Source of the DNA: Escherichia phage vB_Ec-G9
Sequence record: PQ433351.1
Strand: one strand, 5' to 3'
DNA length: 44,261 nt
Both the position numbers and the translations under genes were made by a program. Shown piece by piece: positions 1 to 29,607 of this stretch. The notes under the pieces were generated by a model. It worked only from the letters and a program-made list of their open reading frames with translations. It was not told where the DNA came from and did not search any database. How positions within the stretch are numbered: the stretch's first letter is position 1; every line of letters starts with the position of its first letter.

Positions 1-1988
1 TGGCTATTATTCAGAATGTACCGTGTCCTGCCTGTCAAAAGAATGGACATGATGTTACCGGCAACCATCTCATGATCTTTGATGATGGTGCTGGCTATTG
101 CAACCGTGGTCACTTCCACGATAACGGAAAGCCATACTACCATAAGCCCGAAGGTGGCATCGAGATAACCGAGTTGCCTATTACTGGCAATATCAAATAT
201 ACACCTTCTCAGTTCAAAGAGATGGAGAAGGAAGGGAAGATAAGCGACCTTAAGCTACGCGCCATCGCACTAGGTGGTATGCGTATGAAAGACCGTTGGG
301 AGGTTATGAATGAGCAAGAAAGGGCAGACCAAGAAGCAGATTGGAAACTTGATGTTGAATGGTTCCTCACGCTTAAGCGTAAGAACCTTGTATCCCGACA
401 CATTCGCGGCGACATCGCAGCACTATATGATGTGCGAGTGGGCCATGATGAGGAAGGAAGAGTCAATCGTCACTACTACCCCCGCTTCGAGAAAGGTGAG
501 CTAGTAGGCGCTAAGTGCCGTACCTTACCTAAAGACTTTAAGTTTGGTCATTTAGGTAAACTATTTGGTATGCAAGATCTTTTCGGTATGAATACTTTGT
601 CTCACGTGTTAGACAAGGGAAGACGAAAGGATTGCTTGCTTATTGTAGGCGGCGAACTTGATGCACTAGCAGCCCAGCAGATGCTTCTTGATTCCGCCAA
701 GGGCACTAAGTGGGAAGGACAACCATATCATGTGTGGTCTGTCAACAAGGGTGAGTCTTGCCTTGAAGAGATAGTGCAGAACCGTGAACACATCGCTCAA
801 TTCAAGAAGATTATATGGGGCTTTGATGGTGATGAGGTTGGGCAGAAGCAGAACCAACAAGCGGCTCGCCTGTTTCCTGGTAAATCCTATATCCTTGAGT
901 ATCCTTCTGGGTGCAAAGATGCTAACAAGGCATTGATGGCTGGCAAGGCTAAAGAATTTGTGGATGCTTGGTTTAATGCAAAGTCATCTGATGAAGTCTT
1001 TGGTAGCCAGATTAAATCTATCGCATCTCAAAGGGATAAGCTCAAGGCTGCACGTCCAGAGCAAGGACTATCATGGCCTTGGCCTAAGCTGAACAAGGTA
1101 ACGCTAGGTATTCGTAAGAACCAACTTATCATTGTAGGCGCAGGCTCTGGTGTAGGTAAGACTGAGTTCCTTCGTGAAGTAGTTAAGCACCTCATTGAAG
1201 AACACGGTGAATCTGTAGGCATCATTTCTACAGAAGACCCGATGGTCAAGGTGTCCCGTGCTTTTATCGGCAAGTGGATTGATAAGCGTATTGAGTTACC
1301 GCCAACCAACGACCCGAAAGAAGATGGATACCGTGAGGTGTTCGACTACACCGAGGAAGAGGCTAACGCCGCCATTGATTATGTAGCTGATACAGGTAAG
1401 CTGTTTGTAGCTGACCTAGAGGGTGACTATTCGATGGAAAAGGTAGAGCAAACTTGCCTAGAGTTTGAGGCTATGGGCATTTCTAATATCATCATTGATA
1501 ACTTAACGGGGATTAAATTAGATGAGCGTGCTTTTGGTGGGAAGGTTGGTGCACTTGATGAATGCGTCAAGCGGATTGGTACTATCAAAGACCGACACCC
1601 GGTTACTATATTCCTTGTATCACACCTTACACGTCCTCCGGCAAACCGTACCCAACACGAAGAAGGTGGCGAGGTTATCCTTTCTGACTTCCGAGGTTCA
1701 GGCGCTATCGGATTCTGGGCATCTTACGCCTTGGGGATTGAGCGTAATACAAGAGCTGAAACGCTTGACGAAAGGACTACCACGTACATCTCATGTGTCA
1801 AAGACCGCGACCAAGGAATCTGGACTGGAACCAAGGTCATGCTTAAGGGTGACATTCAAACCGGACGTTTAATGGAACCACAAGCCCGTACTAAGTCATT
1901 TGATACAGGTGAAGCAAGGCAACAAGAGGTGCCGGATTTACCGGACACTATAGAAGAGACAACCTTTGACGATGAACAGGAGTTTTAA
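1..1988 (+). CDS. DNA primase/helicase (T7 gp4-like); 5' end runs off the window start, the ATG is formed by pos 44261 + pos 1-2
   Basis: Open in frame from pos 3 with no stop; N-terminal Cys zinc ribbon CPAC...CNRGH typical of primases; Walker A GAGSGVGKT in helicase half; acidic C-terminus ending DDEQEF. Confidence 0.85.
   Translation, partial: AIIQNVPCPACQKNGHDVTGNHLMIFDDGAGYCNRGHFHDNGKPYYHKPEGGIEITELPITGNIKYTPSQFKEMEKEGKISDLKLRAIALGGMRMKDRWEVMNEQERADQEADWKLDVEWFLTLKRKNLVSRHIRGDIAALYDVRVGHDEEGRVNRHYYPRFEKGELVGAKCRTLPKDFKFGHLGKLFGMQDLFGMNTLSHVLDKGRRKDCLLIVGGELDALAAQQMLLDSAKGTKWEGQPYHVWSVNKGESCLEEIVQNREHIAQFKKIIWGFDGDEVGQKQNQQAARLFPGKSYILEYPSGCKDANKALMAGKAKEFVDAWFNAKSSDEVFGSQIKSIASQRDKLKAARPEQGLSWPWPKLNKVTLGIRKNQLIIVGAGSGVGKTEFLREVVKHLIEEHGESVGIISTEDPMVKVSRAFIGKWIDKRIELPPTNDPKEDGYREVFDYTEEEANAAIDYVADTGKLFVADLEGDYSMEKVEQTCLEFEAMGISNIIIDNLTGIKLDERAFGGKVGALDECVKRIGTIKDRHPVTIFLVSHLTRPPANRTQHEEGGEVILSDFRGSGAIGFWASYALGIERNTRAETLDERTTTYISCVKDRDQGIWTGTKVMLKGDIQTGRLMEPQARTKSFDTGEARQQEVPDLPDTIEETTFDDEQEF
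1935..1958 (+). promoter_or_regulatory. phage RNAP promoter embedded in primase/helicase 3' coding region
   Basis: GATTTACCGGACACTATAGAAGAG matches the window's promoter consensus; encodes PDTIEE in frame. Confidence 0.7.
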
Positions 1989-2149
1989 TGGAAATTATTA
2001 AACCAGTATTGAATATCGGTATTGAGATCCTATTCATGCTTGTGATCGCAGATTATGCTGCACGATATGGCTTCAAGAAAGCAGTGAAACTTATCGTTGC
2101 ATCTGGTTTTATGATGTCAATGTTCTTTATTGTAACACGCCTTATCTAG
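1988..2149 (+). CDS. small hydrophobic protein (53 aa)
   Basis: ATG overlaps upstream stop (TAATG); hydrophobic sequence; below ORF-track size cutoff, found by reading. Confidence 0.35.
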   Translation: MEIIKPVLNIGIEILFMLVIADYAARYGFKKAVKLIVASGFMMSMFFIVTRLI

Positions 2150-2166
2150 TGTATTTATCAGGGCTT

Positions 2167-2182
2167 GTCTCACATGTGAGAC
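2167..2182. repeat. 16-bp perfect palindrome GTCTCACATGTGAGAC (copy 1 of 7)
   Basis: Exact palindrome in intergenic gap, flanked by extra symmetric bases (GCTTG...CAGGC). Confidence 0.9.
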
Positions 2183-2221
2183 AGGCTCTTATTAAGTACA
2201 TTAAATAACTGGAGATTGATT

Positions 2222-2905
2222 ATGTATAAATTAGTATTGAATGTAGGTGATTATGTTCGTAACATCAATGAAGCCTCACGTCGTTATCGTTGCCGTGGTG
2301 TAGTGGCTCGTGTAAGTGAGAACATGTATCATGTAGAATATGATGATGGTATTAAGGCTTCTTATCACAAGAAAACCGCACATAAATATCTTGAAAAGGT
2401 TGTAGAGGTAAACAATCAATGTAAGTGCATACATGATGAGGTTTGCGATAAATGTGCTCGCCAGATGCTTAAGAATTTCCTAGCTCCTCTTTATTATGGT
2501 GCTGGTCCTCAAACACTAGCAGAGTGCATGGCAGAAAAGAAAACCACACTCAAGAAAGAGCGTCGCAATGTAATCACTGGTAAGACTCAAAGTGAGATGA
2601 TTAAGCAATGTGGCACTGCATTAGGTGTTACACAGTTCAATACTCGTGCATTGGGTAAATCCACAGGGCAAGCTATGGTGAAGATTGGCGAAGCCATGAT
2701 GCATCCGAATATACCTGTACGAATCATGGATATAGACCATGCAATCACAGAACATGGGTCTTCACGCCGTGTTATTAACACCCATTTTGCCGACACTATA
2801 GAAGGTATTATTCGTAAGCAAGGTTTGAAGGGTCTTCACATCTTAAATGGTGAAGAATTACTGTACCTACCTATCGTTACTGAAGAGACATACGTGGATA
2901 TCTAA
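2222..2905 (+). CDS. hypothetical protein (228 aa)
   Basis: ORF with RBS GGAG 7 nt upstream of ATG 2222; Cys-rich segment CKCIHDEVCDKC; no recognisable family. Confidence 0.65.
   Translation: MYKLVLNVGDYVRNINEASRRYRCRGVVARVSENMYHVEYDDGIKASYHKKTAHKYLEKVVEVNNQCKCIHDEVCDKCARQMLKNFLAPLYYGAGPQTLAECMAEKKTTLKKERRNVITGKTQSEMIKQCGTALGVTQFNTRALGKSTGQAMVKIGEAMMHPNIPVRIMDIDHAITEHGSSRRVINTHFADTIEGIIRKQGLKGLHILNGEELLYLPIVTEETYVDI
2783..2805 (+). promoter_or_regulatory. degenerate phage-promoter-like sequence inside coding region
   Basis: CATTTTGCCGACACTATAGAAGG: core GACACTATAGAAG intact, -13 to -10 deviate from consensus; encodes ADTIEG in frame. Confidence 0.35.
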
Positions 2906-2915
2906 GGAGTTAATC

Positions 2916-3134
2916 ATGACTAAGGTATTAATTTACATGCGTGGACCTCATAAATGCTATGCAGTTGTAGCACCAAATGGTGTTAAGCCCTATAGTACTT
3001 CAAAAGGATTGGCATTAATAGGTGCTAGTAGTAGTGCAAGTTTCCAAATGGAACTTTTTGGTCATTGGAATGAAAGGCAATTCCGTGAGGATTTTAAAGT
3101 CATTGGCAGCTTCATAGTGAAATATGCAGAATAA
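2916..3134 (+). CDS. hypothetical protein (72 aa)
   Basis: Strong RBS AAGGAG upstream of ATG 2916. Confidence 0.55.
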   Translation: MTKVLIYMRGPHKCYAVVAPNGVKPYSTSKGLALIGASSSASFQMELFGHWNERQFREDFKVIGSFIVKYAE

Positions 3135-3300
3135 ACATAGTCTTAAAATGTTCGATGGTCATGAAGACCTGCAAGCCAAGATTACTAACCAAGCCTTCCT
3201 GTTTGCACAGTTAACTATGGCTGAAGCAAAGAAGAATAGCCTGACGCGTGAACAGGTTATCAAGGAAAGTGAAGTGAAACGTAAGATTCGCAGTCGATAA
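3124..3300 (+). CDS. hypothetical small protein (58 aa)
   Basis: ATG 3124 overlapping upstream stop; below ORF-track cutoff; weak RBS. Confidence 0.3.
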   Translation: MQNKHSLKMFDGHEDLQAKITNQAFLFAQLTMAEAKKNSLTREQVIKESEVKRKIRSR

Positions 3301-3310
3301 GTCAAGGGTT

Positions 3311-3326
3311 GTCTCACACGTGAGAC
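3311..3326. repeat. palindrome variant GTCTCACACGTGAGAC (copy 2)
   Basis: One central base differs from the perfect palindrome; intergenic. Confidence 0.8.
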
Positions 3327-3357
3327 AGCCTTTCATCATATTGATTGGAGGTGCATT

Positions 3358-3465
3358 ATGCCACGTGATTATGATTCTGATTGGGACTATTATGACTCAA
3401 TGAATCCAAAACCCGAACGTTCAGATGATTACTACGAAACAGAGGCAATGTATGAAGACTATTGA
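3358..3465 (+). CDS. very acidic Asp/Tyr-rich micro-protein (35 aa)
   Basis: RBS GGAGG upstream of ATG 3358; sequence MPRDYDSDWDYYDSMNPKPERSDDYYETEAMYEDY; overlaps DNA polymerase start. Confidence 0.3.
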   Translation: MPRDYDSDWDYYDSMNPKPERSDDYYETEAMYEDY

Positions 3466-5998
3466 TTGGAAGAAGGAGGCAGAAGGTCGTATCCTCGTGA
3501 TGGATGCGGAAGCTAAAGGACTCCTTGACGCTATCCGATATGGACACCGTGAAGATGTGCATATCATTTGCTGCATGGATTTGCTTACTACCGAGGAGTT
3601 TCTCTTCTTTGACCCGTATGAGATGCGTGACCCTGAAGCAAGAGAACGCCTGAAGGAATGGGAAGGTCATCAAGATGGAACCTTGGTTGACGGTGTTAAC
3701 TTCCTGAAGCATTGTGAAGCTATTGTGTCACAGAACTTCCTAGGGTATGACGGCCTTCTCTTTGAGAAGGCATTCCCTGATATTTGGAAAGGCTTTAACT
3801 ATACCGAGAAGCGCGGTAAGGGCAGACTCCGTGCTGACCTGTGTCCTATCCGTGTTGTAGATACGCTGGTGATGAGTCGTCTGCTAAACCCAGATAGACG
3901 CCTTCCTCCGCAAGCATATGCCAAAGGCATGGGTAACGTCGCCCCTCACTCAATTGAGGCGCACGGCATCCGTATAGGCCGCTATAAACCAGAGAACAAG
4001 GACTGGTCTAAACTAACTGACCACATGGTTCACCGTGTACGTGAAGACGTGGCAATTGGTCGTGACTTTTTCCTATGGCTTTACAACGGAGAGTGGACGG
4101 AGCACAAACGCCGTGGCGTGAACAAACGTACTGGCCTAGGGATTGAGACAGCCTTCCACATGGAGTCCATTGTGGCGCTGGAGATGAGCCGTCAGGCAGA
4201 GCGTGGATTCCGTCTGGATATTGACAAAGCACTAGCGCGATGCGAAGAACTGGACGCTAAGATTGATGAGACAGTCGCAGCGTTCCGCCCTCACATGCCT
4301 ATGCGTATCAAGTCTAAACCTTTTAAACCGGAAGAAAAGAATGAAGTATGCCAACGCGCAAATGAGTATGGAGCTAGCAACAATATACCTACTGTCCTTG
4401 ACCCCTCACACTTTCTTCATGCCGAGAGACGAGGAGATCGCAAGACAGTATGGAGTGTCACTACTAAGTCTGGTGATTGGTCGGCTAGTGTCAAGAAAGA
4501 CTTTCCTCACCTTAGAGGAAACCGTAATGACACGCCAAGCATCAAGTGGATTGGCGCTTACTCGCCTGTTACTTTCGAAGAGATTCCCTTGGGTAACAGG
4601 GATACAGTTAAGCAAGTGCTCTATGATTATGGATGGAAAGGTGTTGAATTTAACGATACCGAGCAAGCGCATCTCGATGAGCACGGAGTGTTACCCAAAC
4701 CTTGGAGTGGTAAGATAAATGAAAAGTCCCTTACTTTATGGCAAGAAAGAGCCGCACGTGAAGGTAAAACAGTCCCTGATTGGTGCTTGGGTATCGCTGC
4801 ATGGTACATACTCGTATCCCGTCGTGGTCAGATACTCAACCGTGGTGACGTTGAAGCCTTCAACGAGAAGGGAACGTGGCCCTCGCAGGCTGGTGTACGA
4901 AAGTGTCGCGGCCTTGTACCTGTAGCATTCAACAAGGAGCTAGGAATCAATGCGCAGCAATACTACGAGAGGTACGGATGTTGGCCTACGTCTGACAAAG
5001 ATGACGGAGAGTGGCGTGTTCCAGCTGTTGCTATTAGCATTGGCACTTCTACGTTCCGTATGCGTCATCGTAACGTGGTTAATATTCCTGCCCGTGGCTT
5101 GTATCCTTTACGTGATTTATTCATAGCAGGGAAAGGCAAGCTAATCCTTGGTTGTGACGGTGCAGGTCTTGAACTGCGTGTCCTGTCTCACTTCATGAAT
5201 GACCCTGAGTACCAAGAGATTGTACTGCACGGTGATATTCATACGCATAACCAGATGAAGGCTGGTCTTCCTAAGCGTGATATGGCGAAGACGTTTATAT
5301 ACGCCTTCCTCTATGGCTCTGGTATAGCCAACCTTGCAGCAGTATGTGGTGTTACTGAGGAAGAAATGAAGGAAGTTGTGGCAAGATTCGAGATTGAACT
5401 ACCATCTCTTGCACGTCTTCGTGAGAATGTTATCGCACAAGGTAACAAGTTTGGCTACCTGCAAGCACCTGATGGACATTGGGGTCGCATCCGCATGTCT
5501 GGTGGTGAACTTAAAGAGCACACGATGCTTAACGTATTACTCCAGATGACTGGCTCTTTGTGTATGAAATATGCATTAGTCAAGGCATTTGCAGTAATGC
5601 GCAAGGAAGGTGTAGCCTTGGATGCTATGGGAAATCCTTGTGGTGTGGCTAACGTGCATGATGAAATCCAGATGGAAGTTCCTGAAGAGGAGGTCTTGTA
5701 TCTTAACTACGACCTACCTTTCACCTTAGATGGGTTCGAAACAGAGAAGGTTGCCGTGAAAGCAGTGTTCGATGCAGAGGAGAAACGTGTTCATGTGGAT
5801 TCTGAAGGACGTATGTGGTCTGCTGCAAACCTAGTTAGTGTTGATGCTGATGCTGGTGTATTGCATTGCCAGCGCCGTTATCACCGTGCAGGTCATATCA
5901 TTGCCGACGCCATGACTTGGGCAGGGCAGTATCTGAAGATGCGTTGCCCGATGGCAGGCGAATATAAGATTGGCGCAAGTTGGAAGGAAACACACTGA
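3452..5998 (+). CDS. family A DNA polymerase with 3'-5' exonuclease domain (T7 gp5-like)
   Basis: Exo motif ILVMDAEA near N-terminus; pol motifs DGAGLELRV, KTFIYAFLYGSG, VHDEIQ; start placed at ATG 3452 (RBS GAGG) rather than ORF-track 3425. Confidence 0.9.
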   Translation: MKTIDWKKEAEGRILVMDAEAKGLLDAIRYGHREDVHIICCMDLLTTEEFLFFDPYEMRDPEARERLKEWEGHQDGTLVDGVNFLKHCEAIVSQNFLGYDGLLFEKAFPDIWKGFNYTEKRGKGRLRADLCPIRVVDTLVMSRLLNPDRRLPPQAYAKGMGNVAPHSIEAHGIRIGRYKPENKDWSKLTDHMVHRVREDVAIGRDFFLWLYNGEWTEHKRRGVNKRTGLGIETAFHMESIVALEMSRQAERGFRLDIDKALARCEELDAKIDETVAAFRPHMPMRIKSKPFKPEEKNEVCQRANEYGASNNIPTVLDPSHFLHAERRGDRKTVWSVTTKSGDWSASVKKDFPHLRGNRNDTPSIKWIGAYSPVTFEEIPLGNRDTVKQVLYDYGWKGVEFNDTEQAHLDEHGVLPKPWSGKINEKSLTLWQERAAREGKTVPDWCLGIAAWYILVSRRGQILNRGDVEAFNEKGTWPSQAGVRKCRGLVPVAFNKELGINAQQYYERYGCWPTSDKDDGEWRVPAVAISIGTSTFRMRHRNVVNIPARGLYPLRDLFIAGKGKLILGCDGAGLELRVLSHFMNDPEYQEIVLHGDIHTHNQMKAGLPKRDMAKTFIYAFLYGSGIANLAAVCGVTEEEMKEVVARFEIELPSLARLRENVIAQGNKFGYLQAPDGHWGRIRMSGGELKEHTMLNVLLQMTGSLCMKYALVKAFAVMRKEGVALDAMGNPCGVANVHDEIQMEVPEEEVLYLNYDLPFTLDGFETEKVAVKAVFDAEEKRVHVDSEGRMWSAANLVSVDADAGVLHCQRRYHRAGHIIADAMTWAGQYLKMRCPMAGEYKIGASWKETH

Positions 5999-6212: not shown

Positions 6213-6269
6213 GTTATACTCAAGGTCACTTACGAGTGGCCTTTATGAATAACTTAACTGGAGAGTATT

Positions 6270-6530
6270 ATGATTAAATCACAGAAGTATTTCTCAACTA
6301 AAGATCGTAAGGTAGATTTTGAAATCAAAGTTTGGGAAGACGGACACATTACTATTATTTACGAAGGTAAAGGTTCTAATGGTATGATGCTACGTAGATG
6401 CCGTACATTCACAAAGAAAGAATGTATGCATATGTCTGAATGCATGTTTCTTTACATCATTGCTGATGATATTAAAGGTATGAAGCTAATTGTATCTCTA
6501 CCTTTAATACCTAAATCTTTGTTAGGTTGA
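6270..6530 (+). CDS. hypothetical protein (86 aa)
   Basis: ORF with RBS GGAG upstream. Confidence 0.5.
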   Translation: MIKSQKYFSTKDRKVDFEIKVWEDGHITIIYEGKGSNGMMLRRCRTFTKKECMHMSECMFLYIIADDIKGMKLIVSLPLIPKSLLG

Positions 6531-6551
6531 TTTACTGGACACTATAGAAGG
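6531..6551 (+). promoter_or_regulatory. phage RNAP promoter
   Basis: TTTACTGGACACTATAGAAGG. Confidence 0.8.
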
Positions 6552-6616
6552 AAAGCCTAGGTAATCTAGGTTTATAAGGTAGTATGGGTAATTAAGTAAA
6601 TATAGGAGATATAAAT

Positions 6617-6994
6617 ATGTCAATGGTGACTACTCTGGTATTCGTAGCTCAATACTTTCGTGGTTTGGCTAACAAGTTCAAAGCTAAGGCTATCAAAGCT
6701 ATTGAGTCTCGCATTGAAGCAGTACAGGCAGAGCAGTTTGAAGTTGAAGAACATCGTAGTTCTCAAATGATTGACTGCCACAATCGCTACTATGCATCTC
6801 GTGATGACCTTAATGCACGTCAAGTCAAAGAGGTAGAAGAGATGATGGCACGTCACCAGCAAGAGCGAGACAATCTGAAGGCAGACTTTGAAGAGAACAA
6901 AGCATCCATTGCACTGGTACATCAAGCTGCATCTGACAGCCTGAAGAAAGAGATTGTTATGCTGGAGATTGAACTGGACAATCTGACCAAATAA
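6617..6994 (+). CDS. hypothetical coiled-coil protein (125 aa)
   Basis: RBS AGGAG upstream; charged heptad-like sequence. Confidence 0.6.
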   Translation: MSMVTTLVFVAQYFRGLANKFKAKAIKAIESRIEAVQAEQFEVEEHRSSQMIDCHNRYYASRDDLNARQVKEVEEMMARHQQERDNLKADFEENKASIALVHQAASDSLKKEIVMLEIELDNLTK

Positions 6995-7014
6995 TTACTG
7001 GACACTATAGAACA
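6994..7014 (+). promoter_or_regulatory. phage RNAP promoter
   Basis: ATTACTGGACACTATAGAACA. Confidence 0.75.
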
Positions 7015-7071
7015 ATAGGTCGGCTTAGTTCGGCCTATGATTGTGTAGTGTAACAATAGGAGACTAAATCA

Positions 7072-7875
7072 ATGGCACGTAATTTTGATTTTGGCGCAGA
7101 GGTCACTAAGTCAGAAGGTAAAGTATTTAAGAACCCAGAAGTGGGCGACCATGAAGCTGTAATCTCTGGAATCATTCATGTTGGTTCCTTCCAAGATATC
7201 TTTAAGAAAGGCAATACCACTGAAGTTAAGAAGCCAGCAAACTTTGTTCTTGTTAAGATTGTCCTGATGGGTGATGATGACAAGAACGAAGATGATTCAC
7301 GCATGGAACAGTGGATGGCTGTGCCTCTGAAGTCAGGTGATAAAGCTACTCTGACTAAGTTCCTGAATGCAGTTGATCCTAAAGAACTGCTGGGTGGCTT
7401 CGATGACTTCATCGGTGAATGCCTGACTGCAACTATGGTTGGCTCTGGCGACAAGAATGATGATGGTACTTTCAAGTATGTTAACTGGAAAGGCTTTGGC
7501 GGTATGCCTGATAAGTTGAAGAAGCTTGTACTGGCTCAGGTAGAAGAGGAAGGTCTGTCTATGACAGGTCATATCACCTTCGACAAGCTGACCAAAGAAA
7601 TCCTTGATGACATCCCAGCTAACTTGGTACGTCAATACTTCCTGAACGAGACACCTCGTGGTAAGAACCTGTCTGTTGCTGGCTCTCACGTAGAAGCTAT
7701 TATCAAAGCTGCTCGTGAAGAAGACCCAGAGTGGAAGAAAGCCAAGAAGAAAGATGACGAGGATGCTACTCCAGCTAATCGTAAGTCTCTGGATACTGGC
7801 GAGTCTGTTCCACAGGAAGTACCTGAAGCAGAAGATACTCCTGCACCGGAGATGGATGAGGACGCGGAATATTAA
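7072..7875 (+). CDS. abundant protein with acidic C-terminal tail; candidate ssDNA-binding protein (267 aa)
   Basis: RBS AGGAG; highly biased (expression-type) codon usage; C-terminus EMDEDAEY; position and tail resemble T7 gp2.5 logic; sequence similarity not established. Confidence 0.6.
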   Translation: MARNFDFGAEVTKSEGKVFKNPEVGDHEAVISGIIHVGSFQDIFKKGNTTEVKKPANFVLVKIVLMGDDDKNEDDSRMEQWMAVPLKSGDKATLTKFLNAVDPKELLGGFDDFIGECLTATMVGSGDKNDDGTFKYVNWKGFGGMPDKLKKLVLAQVEEEGLSMTGHITFDKLTKEILDDIPANLVRQYFLNETPRGKNLSVAGSHVEAIIKAAREEDPEWKKAKKKDDEDATPANRKSLDTGESVPQEVPEAEDTPAPEMDEDAEY

Positions 7876-7884
7876 GGAGAAAGG

Positions 7885-8103
7885 ATGAAAGTACAAATCG
7901 TAACCCTGCACTGCAAGAAAGGTATCACAACGCTCGGAGGTGGCACTTTCCACTCTTTCTCCGAAGGGGAGATTTATGCTGACCTGCACTACATCTGGCG
8001 CGACGGACAGCACGTGGTGAACTACAGCGACCCAGCTACGGGGAAACGCCACGGCGTATCGCTTCCGGCGCATGACATTGCTCAGGTGAACACAGTTTTA
8101 TAA
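7885..8103 (+). CDS. hypothetical protein (72 aa)
   Basis: RBS AAGGAG upstream. Confidence 0.55.
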   Translation: MKVQIVTLHCKKGITTLGGGTFHSFSEGEIYADLHYIWRDGQHVVNYSDPATGKRHGVSLPAHDIAQVNTVL

Positions 8104-8104
8104 A

Positions 8105-8120
8105 GTCTCACATGTGAGAC
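8105..8120. repeat. 16-bp perfect palindrome GTCTCACATGTGAGAC (copy 3)
   Basis: Exact; lies 15 bp upstream of promoter at 8136. Confidence 0.9.
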
Positions 8121-8135
8121 AAATCGGTGTCCGGT

Positions 8136-8159
8136 ATTTACTGGACACTATAGAAGAGA
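8136..8159 (+). promoter_or_regulatory. phage RNAP promoter
   Basis: TATTTACTGGACACTATAGAAGAG. Confidence 0.8.
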
Positions 8160-8207
8160 AGAATTTTAATCGGCGATAATGCCACAACTAACAAAGGAGA
8201 ATTTAAT

Positions 8208-8585
8208 ATGTTCAAGATTGAAACTATCGTAAACCGTGTTGTTAAAGGTGCTGCTCTGGTATCCGTTGAGTCTTTCATTATCGTCGATGAAGCTGATCAA
8301 CTGGTAGCTGGTACTAAGGCTTACGATACCCGTGAAGAAGCTCAGGCTAAGATTGACAGCATGGGTAACTTCGCTGCTGGTCTGGAGTTCGCTCGCGCTT
8401 GCTTCCCTGAGCAGGCTGACAAAGCTCAGATTGGTAAGGCTAATATCGTAGCTGAATATCTGGATTGGATTGCTGCTGGTAAGCCGGTGAAAGAAGTTAA
8501 GTCTGCTGAAGAAGCTGAAGCTCAGGCGGCAGAAGAAGTAGCTGCACCGGTAGATGCTCCGGTAAGCGAAGAAGAAGAGTTTTAA
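8208..8585 (+). CDS. highly expressed small protein with acidic C-terminal tail ending EEEEF (125 aa)
   Basis: Strong RBS AAAGGAGA; codon usage like capsid gene; followed directly by terminator; function unknown. Confidence 0.7.
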   Translation: MFKIETIVNRVVKGAALVSVESFIIVDEADQLVAGTKAYDTREEAQAKIDSMGNFAAGLEFARACFPEQADKAQIGKANIVAEYLDWIAAGKPVKEVKSAEEAEAQAAEEVAAPVDAPVSEEEEF

Positions 8586-8587
8586 TT

Positions 8588-8625
8588 GATGCCCTGTCTG
8601 CCTTAGTGTAGGCAGGGTCTTTTGC
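8588..8625 (+). terminator. intrinsic terminator (conserved twin of 18032)
   Basis: ATGCCCTGTCTGCC-TTAGTGTA-GGCAGGG followed by TCTTTTG; near-identical element after capsid gene. Confidence 0.65.
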
Positions 8626-8649
8626 GTAATAGTTATTGGAGAATGAATT

Positions 8650-8955
8650 ATGCCGACTATTAAATCTCGTTTAGTAGCAGACTATGTGTATGGTCGTGAC
8701 TTAAAGTTAATGCAAGATTACTTTAAAGTAATCATCCTGCTGGATGGAGAAGTGTTTCACACTAAAACATTCACCCTTCCTGAATTGTTTGATTTAGGTT
8801 ATTGGGGTTATACATATCAGGCCATAGCAGACAAGGTGCTACTCAGTGTATTAGAGGAGTGGCCTACATGCGACCAAACTTCGACTTCGGAGCTACAGTA
8901 TCGGAAGACAATAATCTCATCTTGTGGCCAACTGAAGGTAATCGAATCGCTTTAA
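8650..8955 (+). CDS. hypothetical ORF overlapping exonuclease start (101 aa)
   Basis: ATG 8650 with upstream GGAG; overlaps next gene by 88 nt in another frame, so uncertain. Confidence 0.3.
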   Translation: MPTIKSRLVADYVYGRDLKLMQDYFKVIILLDGEVFHTKTFTLPELFDLGYWGYTYQAIADKVLLSVLEEWPTCDQTSTSELQYRKTIISSCGQLKVIESL

Positions 8956-9896
8956 TAGATGCTGATATGTTACCTTACATCGTCGGGTATACAATCAGTG
9001 ACATGACTTATGTACGAGCTACAACTCGTGTTAAGTCAGGACAAGTCCCATCAATCAAAGATACCCCTGAGTGTAAGCAAGCGTGTGACCGTGTGAACTC
9101 CTTGCTTAACTCTTGGGTGTATGCAGCAGAGTGTGATGCTGCTAAGTTATTCATGACGAAATCAGAAGCTAACTTCCGTGTCCGCCTAGCATTCACCAAG
9201 CCTTACAAGGGTCAACGTAAGACCGAGAAGCCTCCATTCTTCTATGAATTGCGAGAGCATCTCTTAGAGGTTCATGGTGCAATCTTGGCAGATGGAGAAG
9301 AGGCTGATGACCTCATGAGCATTGCACAATGGGACAGCCACCGCCGCTTCCAGCAAGATACAGGTAACGAGTTCCCTATCGGTAGTCCAGAGCATAAAGC
9401 ATTCTCTGATACTTGCATCGTTTCCTTAGATAAGGATTTGATGATTGTTCCCGGTTGGCATCTTCAGCCGGGTCAAGAGAAGAAATGGGTAGAGCCTATG
9501 GGTTGGCTTGAGTTACGCCGTAAGGCTAATGGTCAGGTTAAAGACCTTAAAGGTGCTGGCCTCATGTTTCATTATGCACAGATGATTATCGGTGATGATA
9601 TTGATAACTATGCTGGCATACCTGGACGTGGTGCTAGATACGCCTATGATCTTCTCAAAGATTGTAAGACAGAGAAAGAGTTGTACATGGCAGTGCTTGG
9701 TGCTTACAAGGCTAAGTTCGGACATGGACAAGTTAAGATTAAGAATTACCGAGGGGGTTATCGTATCGGCAAGGCTTTTGACCTGATGCTCGAATGTGGT
9801 CGCCTAGCTCACATGGCAAGATTCAAAGGTGATATATGGCGAGCCGATAAGAACCCAATCTTGTGGGGAGATGATGCGGAATGGTTAGCAAATTAA
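8868..9896 (+). CDS. 5'-3' exonuclease (T7 gp6-like, FEN family)
   Basis: N-terminal IALIDADML and YKGQRK, EEADD motifs parallel T7 gp6 ILVMDGDWL / YKANRK / EGDD; start at ATG 8868 (RBS GAGGAG). Confidence 0.8.
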   Translation: MRPNFDFGATVSEDNNLILWPTEGNRIALIDADMLPYIVGYTISDMTYVRATTRVKSGQVPSIKDTPECKQACDRVNSLLNSWVYAAECDAAKLFMTKSEANFRVRLAFTKPYKGQRKTEKPPFFYELREHLLEVHGAILADGEEADDLMSIAQWDSHRRFQQDTGNEFPIGSPEHKAFSDTCIVSLDKDLMIVPGWHLQPGQEKKWVEPMGWLELRRKANGQVKDLKGAGLMFHYAQMIIGDDIDNYAGIPGRGARYAYDLLKDCKTEKELYMAVLGAYKAKFGHGQVKIKNYRGGYRIGKAFDLMLECGRLAHMARFKGDIWRADKNPILWGDDAEWLAN

Positions 9897-10282: not shown

Positions 10283-10283
10283 T

Positions 10284-10715: not shown

Positions 10716-11722
10716 TGGGTAAGATTAGAAACTTGTTTACTAATAAGGAGGTAGAAGAAGCAGTTGAAAGTGCAAAGCGCGATGATGGCACTATCAACTA
10801 TCGCCTGATGGCGTCTATTCTCTCAGATAACACACATGGGACTACAGTTACAAGGCAGCTTGCAAAGTATTGGGCCAAACAGTTTGAAAAGCGGAAGAAG
10901 AATGGCGAGGCGTATGAAACCTTGGCTATTGCGAACCGTGCTATCAAAGAAGAACGTAAGCTCAGGACTCCTGACCGCTACGAGGATTTGGCTATTGTAC
11001 CATTGCCTGACTCGCCTCATCGAAGTGTATTGGTAATACCTGACACCCATGCACCTTATGAGCATCCAGATACATTAGAGTTTCTGGCAGCGGTGGCAGC
11101 ACGTTACCGTCCAGACACTGTAATTCATCTTGGTGATGAGGCGGACAAGCACGCACTTTCATTCCATACGTCAGATCCTAATCTGGATTCTGCTGGTATG
11201 GAGTTAGAGAAGGCTCGTATCTTCATGCGTAAATTACATAAGATGTTCCCTGTAATGCGCATCTGCCACTCTAATCATGGCTCCTTACATTTCCGTAAGG
11301 CCAGTGCTCATGGCATCCCTGTGCAATACCTGCGCACCTACCGTGAAGTCTTCTTCCCGCAGGGAGGTGGCGACCAGTGGGATTGGCAGCATACGCACGT
11401 CCTTGAGTTGCCGAATGGTGAACAAGTGGCATTCAAGCATCAACCTGCTGGCTCTGTCCTAGCAGATGCAGCGCATGAGCGTATGAACCTTGTGTGTGGT
11501 CACTTGCACGGTAAGATGTCTGTGGAGTACGCACGTAATACACATGAACAGTATTGGGCTGTGCAAGGTGGCTGCTTAATTGATGAGTCATCCCGTGCAT
11601 TTGCCTATGGGCGTGAGTCTAAATACAAGCCAGCATTAGGTTGTGTGGTTATTCTGGAGGGTGTACCTCATATTGTCCCGATGCAAACCAATAGCGACAA
11701 CCGTTGGATTGGCAAGATTTAG
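10715..11722 (+). CDS. calcineurin-like metallophosphoesterase
   Basis: VIPDTHAPY ... HLGDEADKH ... CGHLHG: DxH / GDxxD / GHxH metallophosphatase motifs. Confidence 0.75.
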   Translation: MGKIRNLFTNKEVEEAVESAKRDDGTINYRLMASILSDNTHGTTVTRQLAKYWAKQFEKRKKNGEAYETLAIANRAIKEERKLRTPDRYEDLAIVPLPDSPHRSVLVIPDTHAPYEHPDTLEFLAAVAARYRPDTVIHLGDEADKHALSFHTSDPNLDSAGMELEKARIFMRKLHKMFPVMRICHSNHGSLHFRKASAHGIPVQYLRTYREVFFPQGGGDQWDWQHTHVLELPNGEQVAFKHQPAGSVLADAAHERMNLVCGHLHGKMSVEYARNTHEQYWAVQGGCLIDESSRAFAYGRESKYKPALGCVVILEGVPHIVPMQTNSDNRWIGKI

Positions 11723-11742
11723 TTGACACTATAGAACAAAGG
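11717..11742 (+). promoter_or_regulatory. phage RNAP promoter (variant -12 to -10 GTT)
   Basis: GATTTAGTTGACACTATAGAACAAAG. Confidence 0.7.
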
Positions 11743-11822
11743 GCTAGGTAAGACTTTATCGGCTGGTGTATCCAAATGATATTGCACTAGCCCTTGATTG
11801 TATAGTGAATGGAGGATTCAAT

Positions 11823-12326
11823 ATGTCACACTATGAATGTAAGAAGTGTCATAAGCGTTATGATTACTGTACTTGTGGTCAAGAGAAAACATCTTTTAAA
11901 GTTGGAGACAAGGTATTTCGTAATGAAAAAGATTCGATTCCTTGGAATCAATACTGCAAAGAAGCTGGTATTGACCCTGATAGCCCTGTAACCATAGATG
12001 ATATTGATGGCATTAACTTGTGCTTTCGTGAGGTGAGGGGTACAGGTTGGGATTCCAAAAAATTCAAACTTGCATCTGATAAGTTAGACAACAATATGGT
12101 AACTCAGCCTAAGCACTACGAGTTCTTTGATGGCGTAGAAGCAATTACTATCATCGCCCGTAGTATGACCGAGAAGCAATTCGCGGGGTATTGCATGGGT
12201 AATGCTTTGAAGTATCGTCTGCGTGCAGGTAAGAAGTTCAATACTGAAGAAGACCTGAAGAAAGCAGACTACTACAAAGAGTTATTCCAGAAGCATCGTC
12301 ACGAATGTATTGATGAGGATATTTGA
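11823..12326 (+). CDS. hypothetical protein with N-terminal Cys-rich zinc-ribbon-like segment (167 aa)
   Basis: RBS GGAGG before ATG 11823; CKKCHKRYDYCTC; conserved-looking C-terminal block GYCMGNALKYRLRAGKK. Confidence 0.6.
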   Translation: MSHYECKKCHKRYDYCTCGQEKTSFKVGDKVFRNEKDSIPWNQYCKEAGIDPDSPVTIDDIDGINLCFREVRGTGWDSKKFKLASDKLDNNMVTQPKHYEFFDGVEAITIIARSMTEKQFAGYCMGNALKYRLRAGKKFNTEEDLKKADYYKELFQKHRHECIDEDI

Positions 12327-12327
12327 T

Positions 12328-13275
12328 ATGAATATCTTTGAGTTCCTAGGTCTTCCAGAAGACCACCGCAATCACCCATTCATGCTGGTGAAGCATCGCG
12401 GTGAAGTTCCTGAGAAGAAATTAACTTTTCCATGTTATGCACAGGTGAAACGAGATGGAATATTCAGTGCTGTTGTGGTGCGCAATGATGGTGCTGTTGC
12501 CATCTTTGGTCGTACTGGTAAGAAGCTCGCAAATGTTGAATCCTTGGAAAAGACATTTAGTTTATTTCCTGTCGGGTTGTATCTTGGTGAGTTGCAATCT
12601 ATGGCTGTTGATGTTTATCTTGAAGCTCTGTCAGGAGTGGTAAACCCTAATCGTACAGAGCCACTTGACTTCATAGGCCAGCAGATTAAAGACAACCTGT
12701 ATATCGACTTCTTCGATATGTTAACTATTAAGGCATTCCATGATGGATTCACTGATGTTTCTTATCTCAAACGTTACGATGCTTTACATCGTCGCATCGG
12801 CGCTCATCTTAGCGGGTACAACGCTATCCTTCCTATTACTCCTTGCCATAATGAGCGAGAAGTTGAAGCGTTTGCGCAAGAGCAGATAGACGCAGGCCGA
12901 GAGGGTGCTGTATTCAAACTGGACTGCGATTATGAAGCAGGCCACAAAGGTTATCGTCAGACTAAAGAAGTCCGTAAGGTAACTTATGACCTTACTTGTA
13001 TTGGCTTTGAAGAAGGTAAAGGTAAGTACAAAGGTAAGGTAGCTAACCTCATTTTCAAATGGAAAGGAGGCAAGACAATCAAAGCTATGTTAGGTAAAGG
13101 GTGGACTCATGCAGATGCAGAACAGATGTTCCACGACATTAAACATGGTGGACGATTGAATGTCATTGGTAAAATCTTTGAAGTCAAAGGTCTTCAGGAT
13201 TCAAGCAAGGGCAACATTCGTCTGCCCAAAGCGGGAGAATTAAGACATGACAAAGATGAACCAGATTTCTTTTGA
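12328..13275 (+). CDS. ATP-dependent DNA ligase
   Basis: Motif I KRDG (AQVKRDGIFS), EGAVFK motif; size and position fit phage ligase. Confidence 0.8.
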   Translation: MNIFEFLGLPEDHRNHPFMLVKHRGEVPEKKLTFPCYAQVKRDGIFSAVVVRNDGAVAIFGRTGKKLANVESLEKTFSLFPVGLYLGELQSMAVDVYLEALSGVVNPNRTEPLDFIGQQIKDNLYIDFFDMLTIKAFHDGFTDVSYLKRYDALHRRIGAHLSGYNAILPITPCHNEREVEAFAQEQIDAGREGAVFKLDCDYEAGHKGYRQTKEVRKVTYDLTCIGFEEGKGKYKGKVANLIFKWKGGKTIKAMLGKGWTHADAEQMFHDIKHGGRLNVIGKIFEVKGLQDSSKGNIRLPKAGELRHDKDEPDFF

Positions 13276-16748: not shown

Positions 16749-16772
16749 TATTTACTGGACACTATAGAAGGG
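16749..16772 (+). promoter_or_regulatory. phage RNAP promoter upstream of capsid gene
   Basis: TATTTACTGGACACTATAGAAGGG. Confidence 0.85.
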
Positions 16773-18068: not shown

Positions 18069-18080
18069 TTAGGAGGGTTC

Positions 18081-24896: not shown

Positions 24897-24913
24897 TACC
24901 TAACTCAAGGCTT

Positions 24914-24929
24914 GTCTCACATGTGAGAC
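24914..24929. repeat. 16-bp perfect palindrome GTCTCACATGTGAGAC (copy 4)
   Basis: Exact; flanks GCTTG...CAGGT; between the two large internal virion protein genes. Confidence 0.9.
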
Positions 24930-24960
24930 AGGTCTTTATGATAGGCACTATGGAGGATTT

Positions 24961-27900: not shown

Positions 27901-28158
27901 GGCCTAGGTGTTCTACCTTCTGAGTTAGTACAATCCCGTTATGAGGCTGGATTTCAGACTAAGGGTTTGATAGACCAAATACCACTAGTAGGTGTTGGTC
28001 AAGATGCATATCGTTTAGCAGCTTCTATAACTAAATACGCAGAGGGTGATACAGAAGGTGTAGATGTGGCACGTAGGGCTTTACGCTTAGTGCCTCTAGC
28101 TAATGTAATAGGAATCCAGAACGCATTGCGTTATGGCTTAGATGAACTGGAGGATTAA
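24961..28158 (+). CDS. internal virion protein C (ejection/core protein, 1065 aa)
   Basis: Size and position equivalent to T7 gp16; RBS GGAGG. Confidence 0.8.
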   Translation: MEQDIKTNWAGYVQSTPEPFSIEAAPVLAPTIRQRNELQEQVLEAKADADILGAVGAAFQNEWLAFGGKRWYDRATADFTPQPDFEIQPEQREALRFKYGTDMMQTITEGVRSEDELNFRIQNADEDLERNKRIAQAGWVGSVATIGAAVLDPVGWVASIPTGGAAKVGLVGRAVRGAIAAGVSNAAIESVLVQGDMTRDLDDIMVALGSGMAMGGVIGAVARGRATKLSEQGDDRAASVVRSADAGDRYVRAVADDSIGAMRVKGAEVLTEGVFDISSKGEDLLKTLQREGNAIDMTPRRWAGTMSALGTVVHSSKDASIRGLGARLFESPQGLGAQKASASLMQNTNLNRLKSADMNRFNDGFDLWLKENNINPVAGHTNSHYVQQYNEKVWEAVRIGMDESTPKSIRMAAEGQQAMYREALALRKRSGEAGFENIKADDKYMPDIFDTMKARRQFDRIGKDIDKEDIIELFSRAYQNGARKIPKEAADEIARAQVNRVADATLTGKLSFEKAMSGQTKAEYEAIMRKAGFSDEEIEKMVEALDNKETRDNISNRAKMSLGLDVTQEYNGIRMRDFMNTNVEELTDNYMKEAAGGAALARQGFSTYQAALNAIDLVERNARNAAKDSKASLALDEEIRQMREGLRLIMGKSIDADPQAISTKMMRRGRDITGVLRLGQMGFAQLGELANFMGEFGIAATTIALGKQFRFTSKALRSGDGFFRDKNLAEVERMVGYIGEDNWLTTKGARPDEFGDVTTVRGMMAHFDQSMNSIRRAQTNLSLFRMAQGSLERMTNRQIALSFIDHLEGKKIIPQKKLEELGLTQEVMTNLQKHYDANSKGSGLLGFDTMPYAMGETLANAIRRKSGLIIQRNFIGDEGIWMNKALGKTFAQLKSFSLVSGEKQFGRGIRHDKIGLAKKTAYGFALGSIVYAAKAYVNSIGREDQDEYLEEKLSPKGLAFGAMGMMSTTAVFSLGGDFLGGLGVLPSELVQSRYEAGFQTKGLIDQIPLVGVGQDAYRLAASITKYAEGDTEGVDVARRALRLVPLANVIGIQNALRYGLDELED

Positions 28159-29120
28159 TGAGTTATACTTTCACAGAACATATAGCCAACGGTACGCAAG
28201 TAACCTATCCCTTTAGCTTTGCTGGTAGGGATAAAGGTTATCTTCGTGCCTCAGATGTGATAGTGGAATCTCTTCAAGGTAACACTTGGATTGAGGTTAC
28301 ATCTGGCTGGCAACTAACTGGCACGCACCAGATTACTTTTGATGTAGCACCAGTTGCAGGTTTGAAGTTCCGTATTCGGAGGGAAGTACAAAAGGAGTAT
28401 CCATACGCTGAGTTTGACCGTGGTGTTACCTTGGATATGAAGTCTTTAAATGGTTCTTTCATTCATATACTGGAGATTACACAGGAGTTACTTGACGGGT
28501 TTTATCCAGAAGGATACTTCATTAAACAGAATGTAAGCTGGGGTGGCAATAAGATTACTGATTTGGCTGATGGCACAAACCCGGGAGATGCAGTAAATAA
28601 AGGGCAGCTTGATGCCATTGACAAGAAGCATACAAATTGGAACACCAAACAGGATATTGAGATTGCTGGCCTTAAGGCTAGTATGACTTCTGGTATTGCG
28701 CACAGAACTGTTCCTTGGTACACGATAGCCCAAGGTGGTGAGATTTCCGTAAAACCACCTTATGAATTTCAAGATGCACTAGTTTTCCTTAATGGGGTAT
28801 TGCAGCACCAAATTGTAGGCGCATACTCTATAAGCAACAACACTATCACTTTCGCAGAGCCGCTTGTGGCTGGTACAGAGGTGTATGTGCTGATTGGTAG
28901 TCGTGTGGCTACATCTGAACCTAATATTCAGTTAGAGTTGAACTTTGACTTAGTAGAAGGCCAACAAGTAGTACAGATTGGCTCTGCATTTAAGTACATT
29001 GAGGTCTACCTTGATGGATTATTACAACCTAAACTTGCTTATCAGGTAGACGGTGACATTGTTACTTTCTCAGAGGGAGTGCCAGAATGCCGGATGACTG
29101 CTAAGATTATCACAGCATAA
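28158..29120 (+). CDS. tail fibre adaptor (T7 gp17 N-terminal domain-like)
   Basis: N-terminus MSYTFTEHIANGTQVTYPFSF and GGNKITDLADGTNPGDAVNKGQL parallel T7 gp17 N-terminal domain; no long distal domain. Confidence 0.75.
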   Translation: MSYTFTEHIANGTQVTYPFSFAGRDKGYLRASDVIVESLQGNTWIEVTSGWQLTGTHQITFDVAPVAGLKFRIRREVQKEYPYAEFDRGVTLDMKSLNGSFIHILEITQELLDGFYPEGYFIKQNVSWGGNKITDLADGTNPGDAVNKGQLDAIDKKHTNWNTKQDIEIAGLKASMTSGIAHRTVPWYTIAQGGEISVKPPYEFQDALVFLNGVLQHQIVGAYSISNNTITFAEPLVAGTEVYVLIGSRVATSEPNIQLELNFDLVEGQQVVQIGSAFKYIEVYLDGLLQPKLAYQVDGDIVTFSEGVPECRMTAKIITA

Positions 29121-29129
29121 GGAGGTGGG

Positions 29130-29324
29130 ATGATTAACTCCGAACTGGTAGATAGTGGTGTGAAGCTTGCGCCACCTGCACTCGTATCAGGTGGGTACTT
29201 CCTCGGTATCAGTTGGAATAATTGGGTGTTAATAGCAACATTCATTTATACCGTGTTGCAAATTGGGGACTGGTTTTATAATAAGTTCAAGATTTGGAGG
29301 GAGAAGCGTGAGCGTACACAATAA
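29130..29324 (+). CDS. class II holin (T7 gp17.5-like)
   Basis: ELVDSGVKLAPPALVSGGYFLGIS...IYTVLQIG closely parallels T7 holin ELIKAAPIVGTGVADVSARLFFGLS...AYTVVQIG. Confidence 0.8.
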   Translation: MINSELVDSGVKLAPPALVSGGYFLGISWNNWVLIATFIYTVLQIGDWFYNKFKIWREKRERTQ

Positions 29325-29607
29325 ACATGCAGCTACAGAGGACGAGGTTGGCATTCTGCATGGTGCTATTACCAAAATCTTCAATAAGAAAGCACAGGCA
29401 ATACTGGACACTATAGAAGAAGACCCTGATGCAGCATTACATTTAGTGTCTGGTAAGGATATTGGTGCGATGTGTAAGTGGGTTCTTGATAACGGCATTA
29501 CCGCCACACCTGCTGCACAGCAGGAAGAGTCCAAGTTATCTAAGCGCCTCAAGGCTATCCGAGAGGCATCCAGTGGTAAGATAATTCAATTCACTAAGGA
29601 GGATTGA
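29308..29607 (+). CDS. terminase small subunit (positional call)
   Basis: GTG start with RBS GGAGGGAG; between holin and large terminase as in T7 gene 18. Confidence 0.55.
   Translation: MSVHNKHAATEDEVGILHGAITKIFNKKAQAILDTIEEDPDAALHLVSGKDIGAMCKWVLDNGITATPAAQQEESKLSKRLKAIREASSGKIIQFTKED
29401..29422 (+). promoter_or_regulatory. phage RNAP promoter embedded in small terminase coding region
   Basis: ATACTGGACACTATAGAAGAAG; encodes LDTIEE in frame. Confidence 0.6.

Follow-up and report, generated by a model that had tools for sequence, protein, structure and literature searches.

Why do three proteins of one phage carry the tetrapeptide D-T-I-E, spelled each time by the same four codons? The question is raised by Escherichia phage vB_Ec-G9 (PQ433351.1), whose entire analysed stretch of 44,261 nucleotides is called the window here. 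The 12-mer GACACTATAGAA, the core of the promoters used by the phage's own single-subunit RNA polymerase (RNAP), lies inside the genes for the primase/helicase (site 1), a homologue of K1-5 gp10 (site 2) and the small terminase subunit, terS (site 3). An earlier note had described this overlap as a dual constraint that pins the reading frames of the three genes. The account preferred here, which we hold with good though not complete confidence, is that the promoter is dominant and the protein accommodates it, with site 1 ancient, site 3 made within the genus Vectrevirus and site 2 marginal. The three sites are unequal in functional support, which is strong for site 1, probable for site 3 and doubtful for site 2. 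Sequences, reading frames, stop-codon logic, conservation and covariation were read directly; from these we infer initiation and the relative strengths of the sites.

A promoter core read as codons

The window holds ten exact copies of GACACTATAGAA and one copy with a single mismatch (GGA at 43481), all on the + strand; with one mismatch allowed, 0.37 would be expected by chance in the whole window vs 11 observed. In the phage RNAP promoter, the 12-mer runs from -9 to +3, the G of TATAG being +1 in SP6-type promoters. With the upstream halves included, the full element is ~23 bp long (-17 to +6) and has the consensus ATTTACTGGACACTATAGAAGAG, which is the form that the classical SP6 promoter ATTTAGGTGACACTATAGAAGAG takes in the K1-5 type. 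The notion that the embedded copies are chance promoter-like 12-mers in coding sequence, to which the small number of sites and nothing else lends weight, is refuted by this excess of matches and by conservation at orthologous positions in dozens of genomes; we give it next to no credence.

Eight of the 11 cores lie between open reading frames (ORFs) and three within them. Coding DNA makes up 91% of the window yet holds only these three promoters (binomial P = 5.6e-7), i.e., the promoters avoid coding sequence. In a position weight matrix (PWM) built from the eight intergenic promoters, which themselves score 31.8-38.5, site 1 equals the intergenic promoters (36.3), site 3 reaches 27.0 and site 2 19.3, and the best non-promoter sequence scores 8.9; the match to the promoter consensus is full for site 1, large for site 3 and marginal for site 2. 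Scans for sigma-70 and terminator consensus sequences around the sites did no better than shuffles.

The three embedded promoters lie wholly within ORFs that are read through without a stop. The cores that the earlier note had placed at 1935, 2783 and 29401 are indeed there, these positions being the approximate 5' ends of the full promoters; GACACTATAGAA itself starts at 1944, 2792 and 29407. It is in phase 0 of all three host ORFs and gives PDTIEE, ADTIEG and LDTIEE, so that the in-frame reading GAC-ACT-ATA-GAA was correct as well: GAC covers -9 to -7, ACT -6 to -4, ATA -3 to -1 and GAA +1 to +3. In the proposed mechanism, the phage RNAP would transcribe the genes from its ~23-bp promoters, normally placed in short intergenic gaps, and D-T-I-E would be positions -9 to +3 read in frame, with the initiating GAA doubling as the Glu codon. 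GAA at +1 to +3 is the most active initiating sequence for SP6 RNAP (PMC7429497), which fits the Glu codon at all three embedded sites.

The recurring element is the DNA sequence; the peptide is secondary. D-T-I-E occurs three times in the proteome vs 0.17 expected, each time at a promoter core with the same 12-mer. Given the peptide, codon usage yields GAC-ACT-ATA-GAA with P = 0.014 per site (GAC accounts for 36% of the Asp codons, ATA for only 17% of those for Ile). Elsewhere in the proteome, T-I-E occurs twice, written ACG-ATT-GAG and ACT-ATT-GAG. The reverse reading, in which D-T-I-E is a functional motif common to the three proteins and the promoter likeness is incidental, could draw on the small terminases of relatives, which have D-V-I-E-E or D-S-I-E-A and no promoter, and on the K1-5 helicase, which retains D-T-I-E despite a synonymous promoter change at -7. 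The three host proteins, however, are mutually unrelated by Pfam and share one and the same codon-usage-disfavoured 12-mer; the helicase peptide varies in step with each phage's promoter; and the gp10 position in relatives reads AAIVNH (L013), RDNIMF (Proteus phage vB_PmiP_Pm5460, hereafter Pm5460) or RQMVTS (POP72-type phages). Conservation of the peptide in related phages, a check that the earlier note had proposed, is not seen at the helicase, gp10 or terS positions: orthologues do not keep D-T-I-E irrespective of the DNA. The comparative data contradict a peptide-first origin, which we regard as very improbable. More generally, an overlapping DNA signal can give a short peptide the spurious appearance of being conserved.

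The shared reading frame is uninformative. The consensus frame ATT-TAC-TGG-ACA-CTA-TAG ends in a stop, and the CTA-TAG frame is closed in every phage of the group; TTT-ACT-GGA-CAC-TAT-AGA (FTGHYR) and TTA-CTG-GAC-ACT-ATA-GAA (LLDTIE) are open. In the SP6-type consensus (GGTGAC), TGA also closes the second frame (TTT-AGG-TGA), so an SP6-type promoter can be embedded in one frame only. The amino-acid composition of the window predicts 2.85 occurrences of T-I-E vs 0.51 of H-Y-R, and 0.174 of DTIE vs 0.040 of GHYR, making the H-Y-R alternative ~4-6 times less likely than the D-T-I-E frame. All three embedded cores of SP6 (helicase 8419, gp11 9120, gp36 29401) use the D-T-I frame, as do those of Klebsiella phage cp4 and Salmonella phage Kenya-K11. 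A shared frame is expected because TAG (in the SP6 type, also TGA) closes frames, H-Y-R is rarer and site 1 is inherited; three sites in one frame add no information, and shared ancestry cuts the number of independent events.

Two other coding sequences in the group resemble the core. The gene for the internal virion protein gp36 of SP6-type Salmonella phages carries GCTAGGTGACACTATAGGTG, read D-T-I-G, with a poor upstream AT-rich part (29393-29415 in SP6, L002; about 29626-29648 in Kenya-K11, L051); it is absent from the window. CACTATAG lies within the RNAP gene (42386-42393; SP6 L002:5021-5028) and lacks the promoter upstream half. It is conserved across SP6-like phages, and in relatives the frame used is the other open one (Q-H-Y-S). 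It is probably mere coding sequence.

The helicase-tail site, a very probable promoter

Site 1 falls within the last 18 codons of the primase/helicase gene. The 3' ends of this gene were compared in K1-5, K1E, SP6, Pm5460, 15 IMG/VR contigs, 11 further Vectrevirus genomes and six more distant phages; the IMG/VR scans returned 15 and 21 related loci. All nine lineages examined have a promoter-like sequence at the same tail codons (Table 1). In a 9 x 9 mismatch matrix, site 1 differs from the intergenic promoter of its own genome at 0-4 of 20 positions, which is the row minimum in every row. The lineages differ in the RNAP region aligned to the specificity loop of T7, e.g., GDIKMS in SP6 vs GDVFMS in L017, and the tail peptide reads DTIE, TTIE, RTIE, ATIE, CTIE, PSIE, ASIE or DSSG. 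Such tracking of each lineage's own promoter is the signature of a functional promoter, with the tail peptide following it; judged by this covariation, site 1 is very probably a real, ancient working promoter. Of the dual constraint claimed in the earlier note, the overlap of promoter and codons stands and the balance does not: the constraint runs from promoter to protein, the helicase-tail peptide varying with the promoter.

Table 1. Site 1 in nine lineages, its codons and peptide, and the intergenic promoter of the same genome
Lineage	Site 1	Codons	Peptide	Own intergenic promoter
Vectrevirus	TTTACCGGACACTATAGAAG	GAT TTA CCG GAC ACT ATA GAA GAG	DLPDTIEE	ATTTACTGGACACTATAGAAG
SP6	ATTAGGTGACACTATAGAAG	GAA TTA GGT GAC ACT ATA GAA GAG	ELGDTIEE	ATTTAGGTGACACTATAGAAG
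Pm5460	ATTAGAGACCACTATAGAAG	GAA TTA GAG ACC ACT ATA GAA GAA	ELETTIEE	AATTA[AG]AGACCACTATAGAAG
POP72/L015	CTTAGGGCGGACTATAGAAC	GAC TTA GGG CGG ACT ATA GAA CAA	DLGRTIEQ	TTAGGGCGGACTATAGAAC
Lelliottia phD2B	ATAGGGGCTACTATAGAAC	GAA ATA GGG GCT ACT ATA GAA CAG	EIGATIEQ	AATAAGGGGCTACTATAGAACAA
L017	ATGTGTTGCACTATAGAAG	GAT ATG TGT TGC ACT ATA GAA GAT	DMCCTIED	TTGTGTTGCACTATAG
Era103	TTACCACCCAGCATAGAAG	GAA TTA CCA CCC AGC ATA GAA GAA	ELPPSIEE	AACCACCCAGTATAGAAGG
Klebsiella F5M1D	ATAGTGGCGAGTATAGAAG	CCA ATA GTG GCG AGT ATA GAA GAG	PIVASIEE	T[TA]GTGGC[GT]AGTATAGAACA
Vibrio BD5	TTACAGGACAGTAGTGGAC	GAA TTA CAG GAC AGT AGT GGA CAG	ELQDSSGQ	TTTACAGGACCGTAGTGGGA

L017 (IMGVR_UViG_3300045988_000861) is an SP6-like contig in which the promoters have switched to TTGTGTTGCACTATAG (GTGTTGC); the positions concerned are 2575-2597, 4865-4887 and 5567-5589, and 5182-5204 in L029. 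At its helicase tail the new specificity was adopted, and the codons there now give Cys-Cys; its gp11 core stayed SP6-type (ACGTGAC). A natural specificity switch of this kind is useful to separate functional from orphan promoter copies.

In the proposed mechanism, site 1 would have stayed at these codons in all SP6-like phages, re-evolving with each change of specificity and altering the tail peptide as it does so. It would most likely start the transcription of gp9.5, of gp10 and of the genes on the way to the DNA polymerase; the predicted transcript start at 1953 is 35 nt before the gp9.5 ATG. The helicase tail varies in both length and composition; it is acidic, probably flexible, and has Phe or Tyr as its last residue; in the window it ends in EVPDLPDTIEETTFDDEQEF before the stop, acidic and with a terminal Phe. 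T7 gp4 has a similar acidic C-terminal tail, with which it contacts the DNA polymerase. A tail of this kind plausibly tolerates residues imposed by a promoter.

We lean, with some reserve, towards a broader statement: that across the SP6-like group (Molineuxvirinae and the Vibrio relative) the ~8-10 variable residues before the acidic helicase end are set by the RNAP promoter code and not by protein function. If so, each switch in polymerase specificity would have forced replacements in a replication protein, e.g., Cys-Cys in L017 and Pro-Pro-Ser in Era103, and the helicase-tail site could reveal the promoter specificity of any such phage. Universal retention of site 1 would then imply an important role, such as driving the DNA-polymerase block that lies beyond the upstream hairpin, or priming replication.

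Vectrevirus genomes with and without gp9.5, which about half of them carry, have two haplotypes downstream of site 1 (…ACAACC…EQEF-stop followed by gp9.5 vs …ACTAAC…ESEF-stop). The two split immediately 3' of promoter 1 (window 1959-2149 vs K1-5 L001:8340-8440), and this suggests that promoter 1 marks a recombination boundary. The variants of the site 1 core are all in genomes without gp9.5 (3/9 vs 0/9 with it), a difference that is not significant. A divergence that begins right after site 1, with the upstream part shared, is what one would expect if the embedded copies were mainly recombination junctions, i.e., homology patches for swapping downstream modules, with transcription secondary. 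Such a role leaves the re-tuning of the helicase site to each lineage's RNAP specificity unexplained; moreover, sites 2 and 3 coincide with no module boundary, both flanks being conserved in the same gene, and a patch of 23 bp is short for homologous recombination. We judge it improbable, and promoter function remains the preferred explanation of site 1.

The small terminase and gp10 sites

Site 3 has the form ATA CTG GAC ACT ATA GAA GAA in all Vectrevirus sequences, K1-5 and K1E included (with variants in single contigs), and was found in Vectrevirus only. It matches the consensus from -14 to +5, with mismatches only at -17 to -15, and lies 188 nt upstream of the large-terminase start. Relatives without the promoter have ILDVIEE in Pm5460 (GAT GTG ATA GAA), ILDSIEA in L017-type phage (GAT TCT ATC GAG), ILAAVEE in SP6 and LLSMIED in Era103-like terS. 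Measured against the L029-type sequence, ~5 differences at site 3 are synonymous and one replaces Ser by Thr; each of them brings the site closer to the promoter. The presence of a similar peptide in promoter-less relatives indicates that site 3 arose in Vectrevirus on a pre-adapted D-x-I-E-E segment. The proposed course is that mostly synonymous changes and one conservative replacement on I-L-D-x-I-E-E would have produced the site, which would probably add transcription of the large terminase gene; on this sequence evidence, site 3 is a probable secondary promoter for that gene. The 33-mer at site 3 is identical in ~59/~80 Vectrevirus records, the flanking 33-mers in ~35/82 and 37/~80. The corresponding counts for the site 1 33-mer vs its flanks are 18, 0 and 37, which are dominated by private window variants in the 5-nt margins.

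At site 2, none of 20 Vectrevirus sequences differs in the core (-9 to +4), and neighbouring third positions vary. In SP6-type phages, a core lies 4 codons further on in the same protein region (VLRDTIGG, TTACGTGACACTATAGGT); with the cores at different codons in Vectrevirus and the SP6 type, a promoter-like core has appeared twice in this region. Site 2 is downstream of the hairpin that follows gp9.5, and no other promoter-like sequence lies between it and the DNA polymerase gene; a weak re-initiation role is plausible. Its PWM score is similar to those of two degenerate intergenic look-alikes, at 43662-43684 and 39717-39739. The first (ATTTACCGGACAGTATAGATAAG, PWM 21.5) lies outside the listed ORFs and is the second after the RNAP gene; the other (ATTTATCTGACACTATAAGAGAG, PWM 20.9) has A, not G, at +1, is likewise outside the listed ORFs and lies upstream of a gp6-like ORF. 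Site 2 may be described, with some uncertainty, as a degenerate, weak or marginal promoter-like core.

Several observations weigh against the account given so far. Conservation of synonymous positions within the genus, measured in 16-19 distinct Vectrevirus sequences per gene as the summed third-codon minor-allele frequency in 8-codon promoter windows, is only suggestive: among the in-phase windows of the respective host genes, the three rank within the lowest 13%, 13% and 21%, a consistent direction but with a combined P of ~0.08, which is not significant. Positions -9 to +1 are invariant in all eight intergenic promoters (11 complete genomes); at sites 1 and 3, by contrast, a few natural isolates are mutated in the core. 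The site 1 core is intact in 15/18 Vectrevirus sequences, with a synonymous GAC to GAT change (C-7T) in K1-5 and G-10A in two contigs; site 3 has C-7T in L022, A-8G (Asp to Gly) in L028 and A+3G in one contig. The embedded copies are thus individually dispensable, site 3 is not strictly required, and the constraint on embedded copies seems somewhat weaker than that on intergenic promoters. The D-x-I-E-E of promoter-less relatives also means that part of the site 3 match is inherited protein sequence. At site 2, the upstream half departs from the consensus at four positions, -13 to -10, a degeneracy that the earlier note had recognised, and L013, Pm5460 and POP72-type phages lack the site. The L017 switch took in the polymerase loop, the intergenic promoters and the helicase site but left the gp11 counterpart of site 2 unchanged, which argues that in this lineage, at least, selection does not preserve that counterpart as a promoter.

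These points would be accommodated if only site 1 worked and sites 2 and 3 were inactive or negligible look-alikes, i.e., decayed copies, recombination scars or near-matches on compatible peptides kept mainly by protein-level constraint. For site 2, this possibility draws on the four mismatches and the PWM score of 19.3, on the SP6-lineage counterpart that ignored the L017 switch and on the relatives that lack the site; for site 3, on the older D-x-I-E-E motif and the -7 and -8 mutations; and for both, on the within-genus synonymous conservation falling short of significance. It has more difficulty with the core itself: an exact 10-12-mer is ~1e-6 likely per position, and sites 2 and 3 both use the rare Ile codon ATA and the minority codon GAC. 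Nor would it predict that site 3 fits the consensus from -14 to +5 with its ~5 synonymous changes from an L029-like sequence all promoter-ward, that the site 2 core is invariant amid variable third positions, or that two lineages have a core at different codons of the same region, which suggests that a promoter is wanted there. We consider a sole working site 1 possible but the less likely case, and retain a graded reading. Core conservation in related phages, a further check proposed in the earlier note, gave a mixed result along the same lines: site 1 is ancient, site 3 is confined to Vectrevirus and site 2 is missing from several relatives.

Genome context and known systems

The window is the complete, circularly permuted genome of a K1-5/K1E-like Vectrevirus of the SP6-like group: Megablast of its first 20 kb returned ~80 near-full-length Vectrevirus matches (K1-5, K1E and relatives) at 92-96% identity, K1-5 being ~93% identical to the window. 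The + strand carries all long ORFs and all 11 promoter cores, i.e., the promoters are co-directional with the genes. The features are collected in Table 2.

Table 2. Promoters, genes and a hairpin discussed in the text, by position in the window
Feature	Position	Strand	Basis or sequence
Embedded promoter 1, +1 G at 1953	1936..1958	+	ATTTACCGGACACTATAGAAGAG, read D-L-P-D-T-I-E-E
Embedded promoter-like site 2, +1 G at 2801	2784..2806	+	ATTTTGCCGACACTATAGAAGGT, read H-F-A-D-T-I-E-G
Embedded promoter 3, +1 G at 29416	29399..29421	+	CAATACTGGACACTATAGAAGAA, read A-I-L-D-T-I-E-E
Intergenic phage promoter, reference site	6530..6552	+	core match, PWM
Intergenic phage promoter	6993..7015	+	core match, PWM
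Intergenic phage promoter	8136..8158	+	core match, PWM
Intergenic phage promoter, AGTTGAC variant	11717..11739	+	core match, PWM
Intergenic phage promoter upstream of major capsid gene	16750..16772	+	core match, PWM
Intergenic phage promoter after large terminase gene	31504..31526	+	core match, PWM
Intergenic phage promoter upstream of tailspike gene	33169..33191	+	core match, PWM
First phage promoter after RNAP gene, TATAGGA variant	43473..43495	+	core match, PWM
Primase/helicase (638 aa), host gene of site 1	72..1988	+	Pfam DnaB_C and Toprim_2; aligned with K1-5 gp9, SP6 gp10
gp9.5, small ORF (53 aa, hydrophobic), first gene 3' of promoter 1	1988..2149	+	K1E gp9.5 annotation
Strong hairpin, palindrome GTCTCACATGTGAGAC at centre	2148..2202	+	RNA fold -27.9 kcal/mol, z = -7.2
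gp10 homologue of K1-5, host gene of site 2	2216/2222..2905	+	alignment; Pfam: no match
Small terminase subunit, host gene of site 3	29263/29308..29607	+	PF11123 DNA_Packaging_2, E = 3e-16; alignment
Large terminase, first complete gene 3' of promoter 3	29604..31505	+	PF22530
Single-subunit phage RNAP, recognises these promoters	40754..43381	+	PF00940 and PF14700; specificity-loop alignment

The Shine-Dalgarno sequence and ATG of gp9.5 overlap the helicase stop (CAGGAGTTTTAATG), and the hairpin after gp9.5 sits between promoter 1 and promoter-like site 2. The 16-bp palindrome at its centre, GTCTCACATGTGAGAC, has eight copies with at most 2 mismatches in the window vs 0.02 expected. Seven are apparently intergenic (2167-2182, 3311-3326, 8105-8120, 24914-24929, 38239-38254, 43455-43470 and 43641-43656), and one, with 2 mismatches, is within the helicase ORF (599-614); three are directly upstream of promoters or promoter-like sites (8136, 43473 and 43662). 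The palindromes could be RNase III sites, terminators or a site for protein binding.

Overlap of this kind matters for annotation, since promoter searches in SP6-like phages must extend beyond intergenic DNA. In evolutionary terms, the helicase-tail site is a regulatory element that dictates protein sequence and that, in nine or more lineages, has co-evolved with the specificity of the polymerase. When therapeutic phages of the K1-5/K1E type are recoded, codon-optimised or refactored, promoters would probably be lost through synonymous changes at 1936-1958 and 29399-29421, and possibly through those at 2784-2806.

Promoters for single-subunit phage RNAPs embedded in coding sequence are already known, and the window holds no new kind of system. 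The searchable literature, from which the original SP6 and K1-5 promoter tables were out of reach, gave nothing specific on transcription start site (TSS) mapping for Vectrevirus or on embedded promoters in SP6-like phages. The closest relatives, SP6, K1-5 and K1E, share with the window the promoter family, the core ACACTATAGAA, the overall genome architecture and a set of orthologous sites. Both K1-5 and K1E carry sites 2 and 3; site 1 is intact in K1E and has C-7T in K1-5. Positions -12 to -10 are of the K1-5 type (CTG or CCG) in the window vs GGT in SP6, and SP6 lacks site 3 (peptide AAVEE). The SP6 promoter occurs 12 times in its genome according to one report (PMC11880802); 11 cores of the form GACACTATAG were counted here, three of them embedded.

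Pm5460 has a promoter at the same helicase-tail codons as site 1, followed by a small ORF, and its GenBank record gives it as a regulatory feature (8915..8937, in the helicase CDS 6979..8967). The feature is a PHIRE prediction, and it differs from site 1 in promoter specificity (AATTAGAGACCACTATAGAAG) and peptide (ELETTIEE).

In T7, phi4c is, like site 1, a single-subunit RNAP promoter within the primase/helicase gene that is shaped by stop avoidance. The T7 reference record annotates it with a TSS at 12671, inside the gene 4 CDS (11565..13265), ~600 nt before the gene 4 stop, whereas site 1 is in the C-terminal tail; by position, the counterpart of site 1 is phi4.3, 76 nt after the gene 4 stop. 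The phi4c sequence CAATCCGACTCACTAAAGAGAG (L058 12654-12676) is read CAA-TCC-GAC-TCA-CTA-AAG (CAATCCGACTCACTAAAG, i.e., QSDSLK), in the frame that would hold TAA and TAG, and its two departures from consensus, T-17 to C and T-2 to A, are precisely the changes that abolish these stops. The two systems have found opposite solutions: phi4c alters the consensus to lose stops, whereas the sites in the window keep the consensus core and place it in a stop-free frame.

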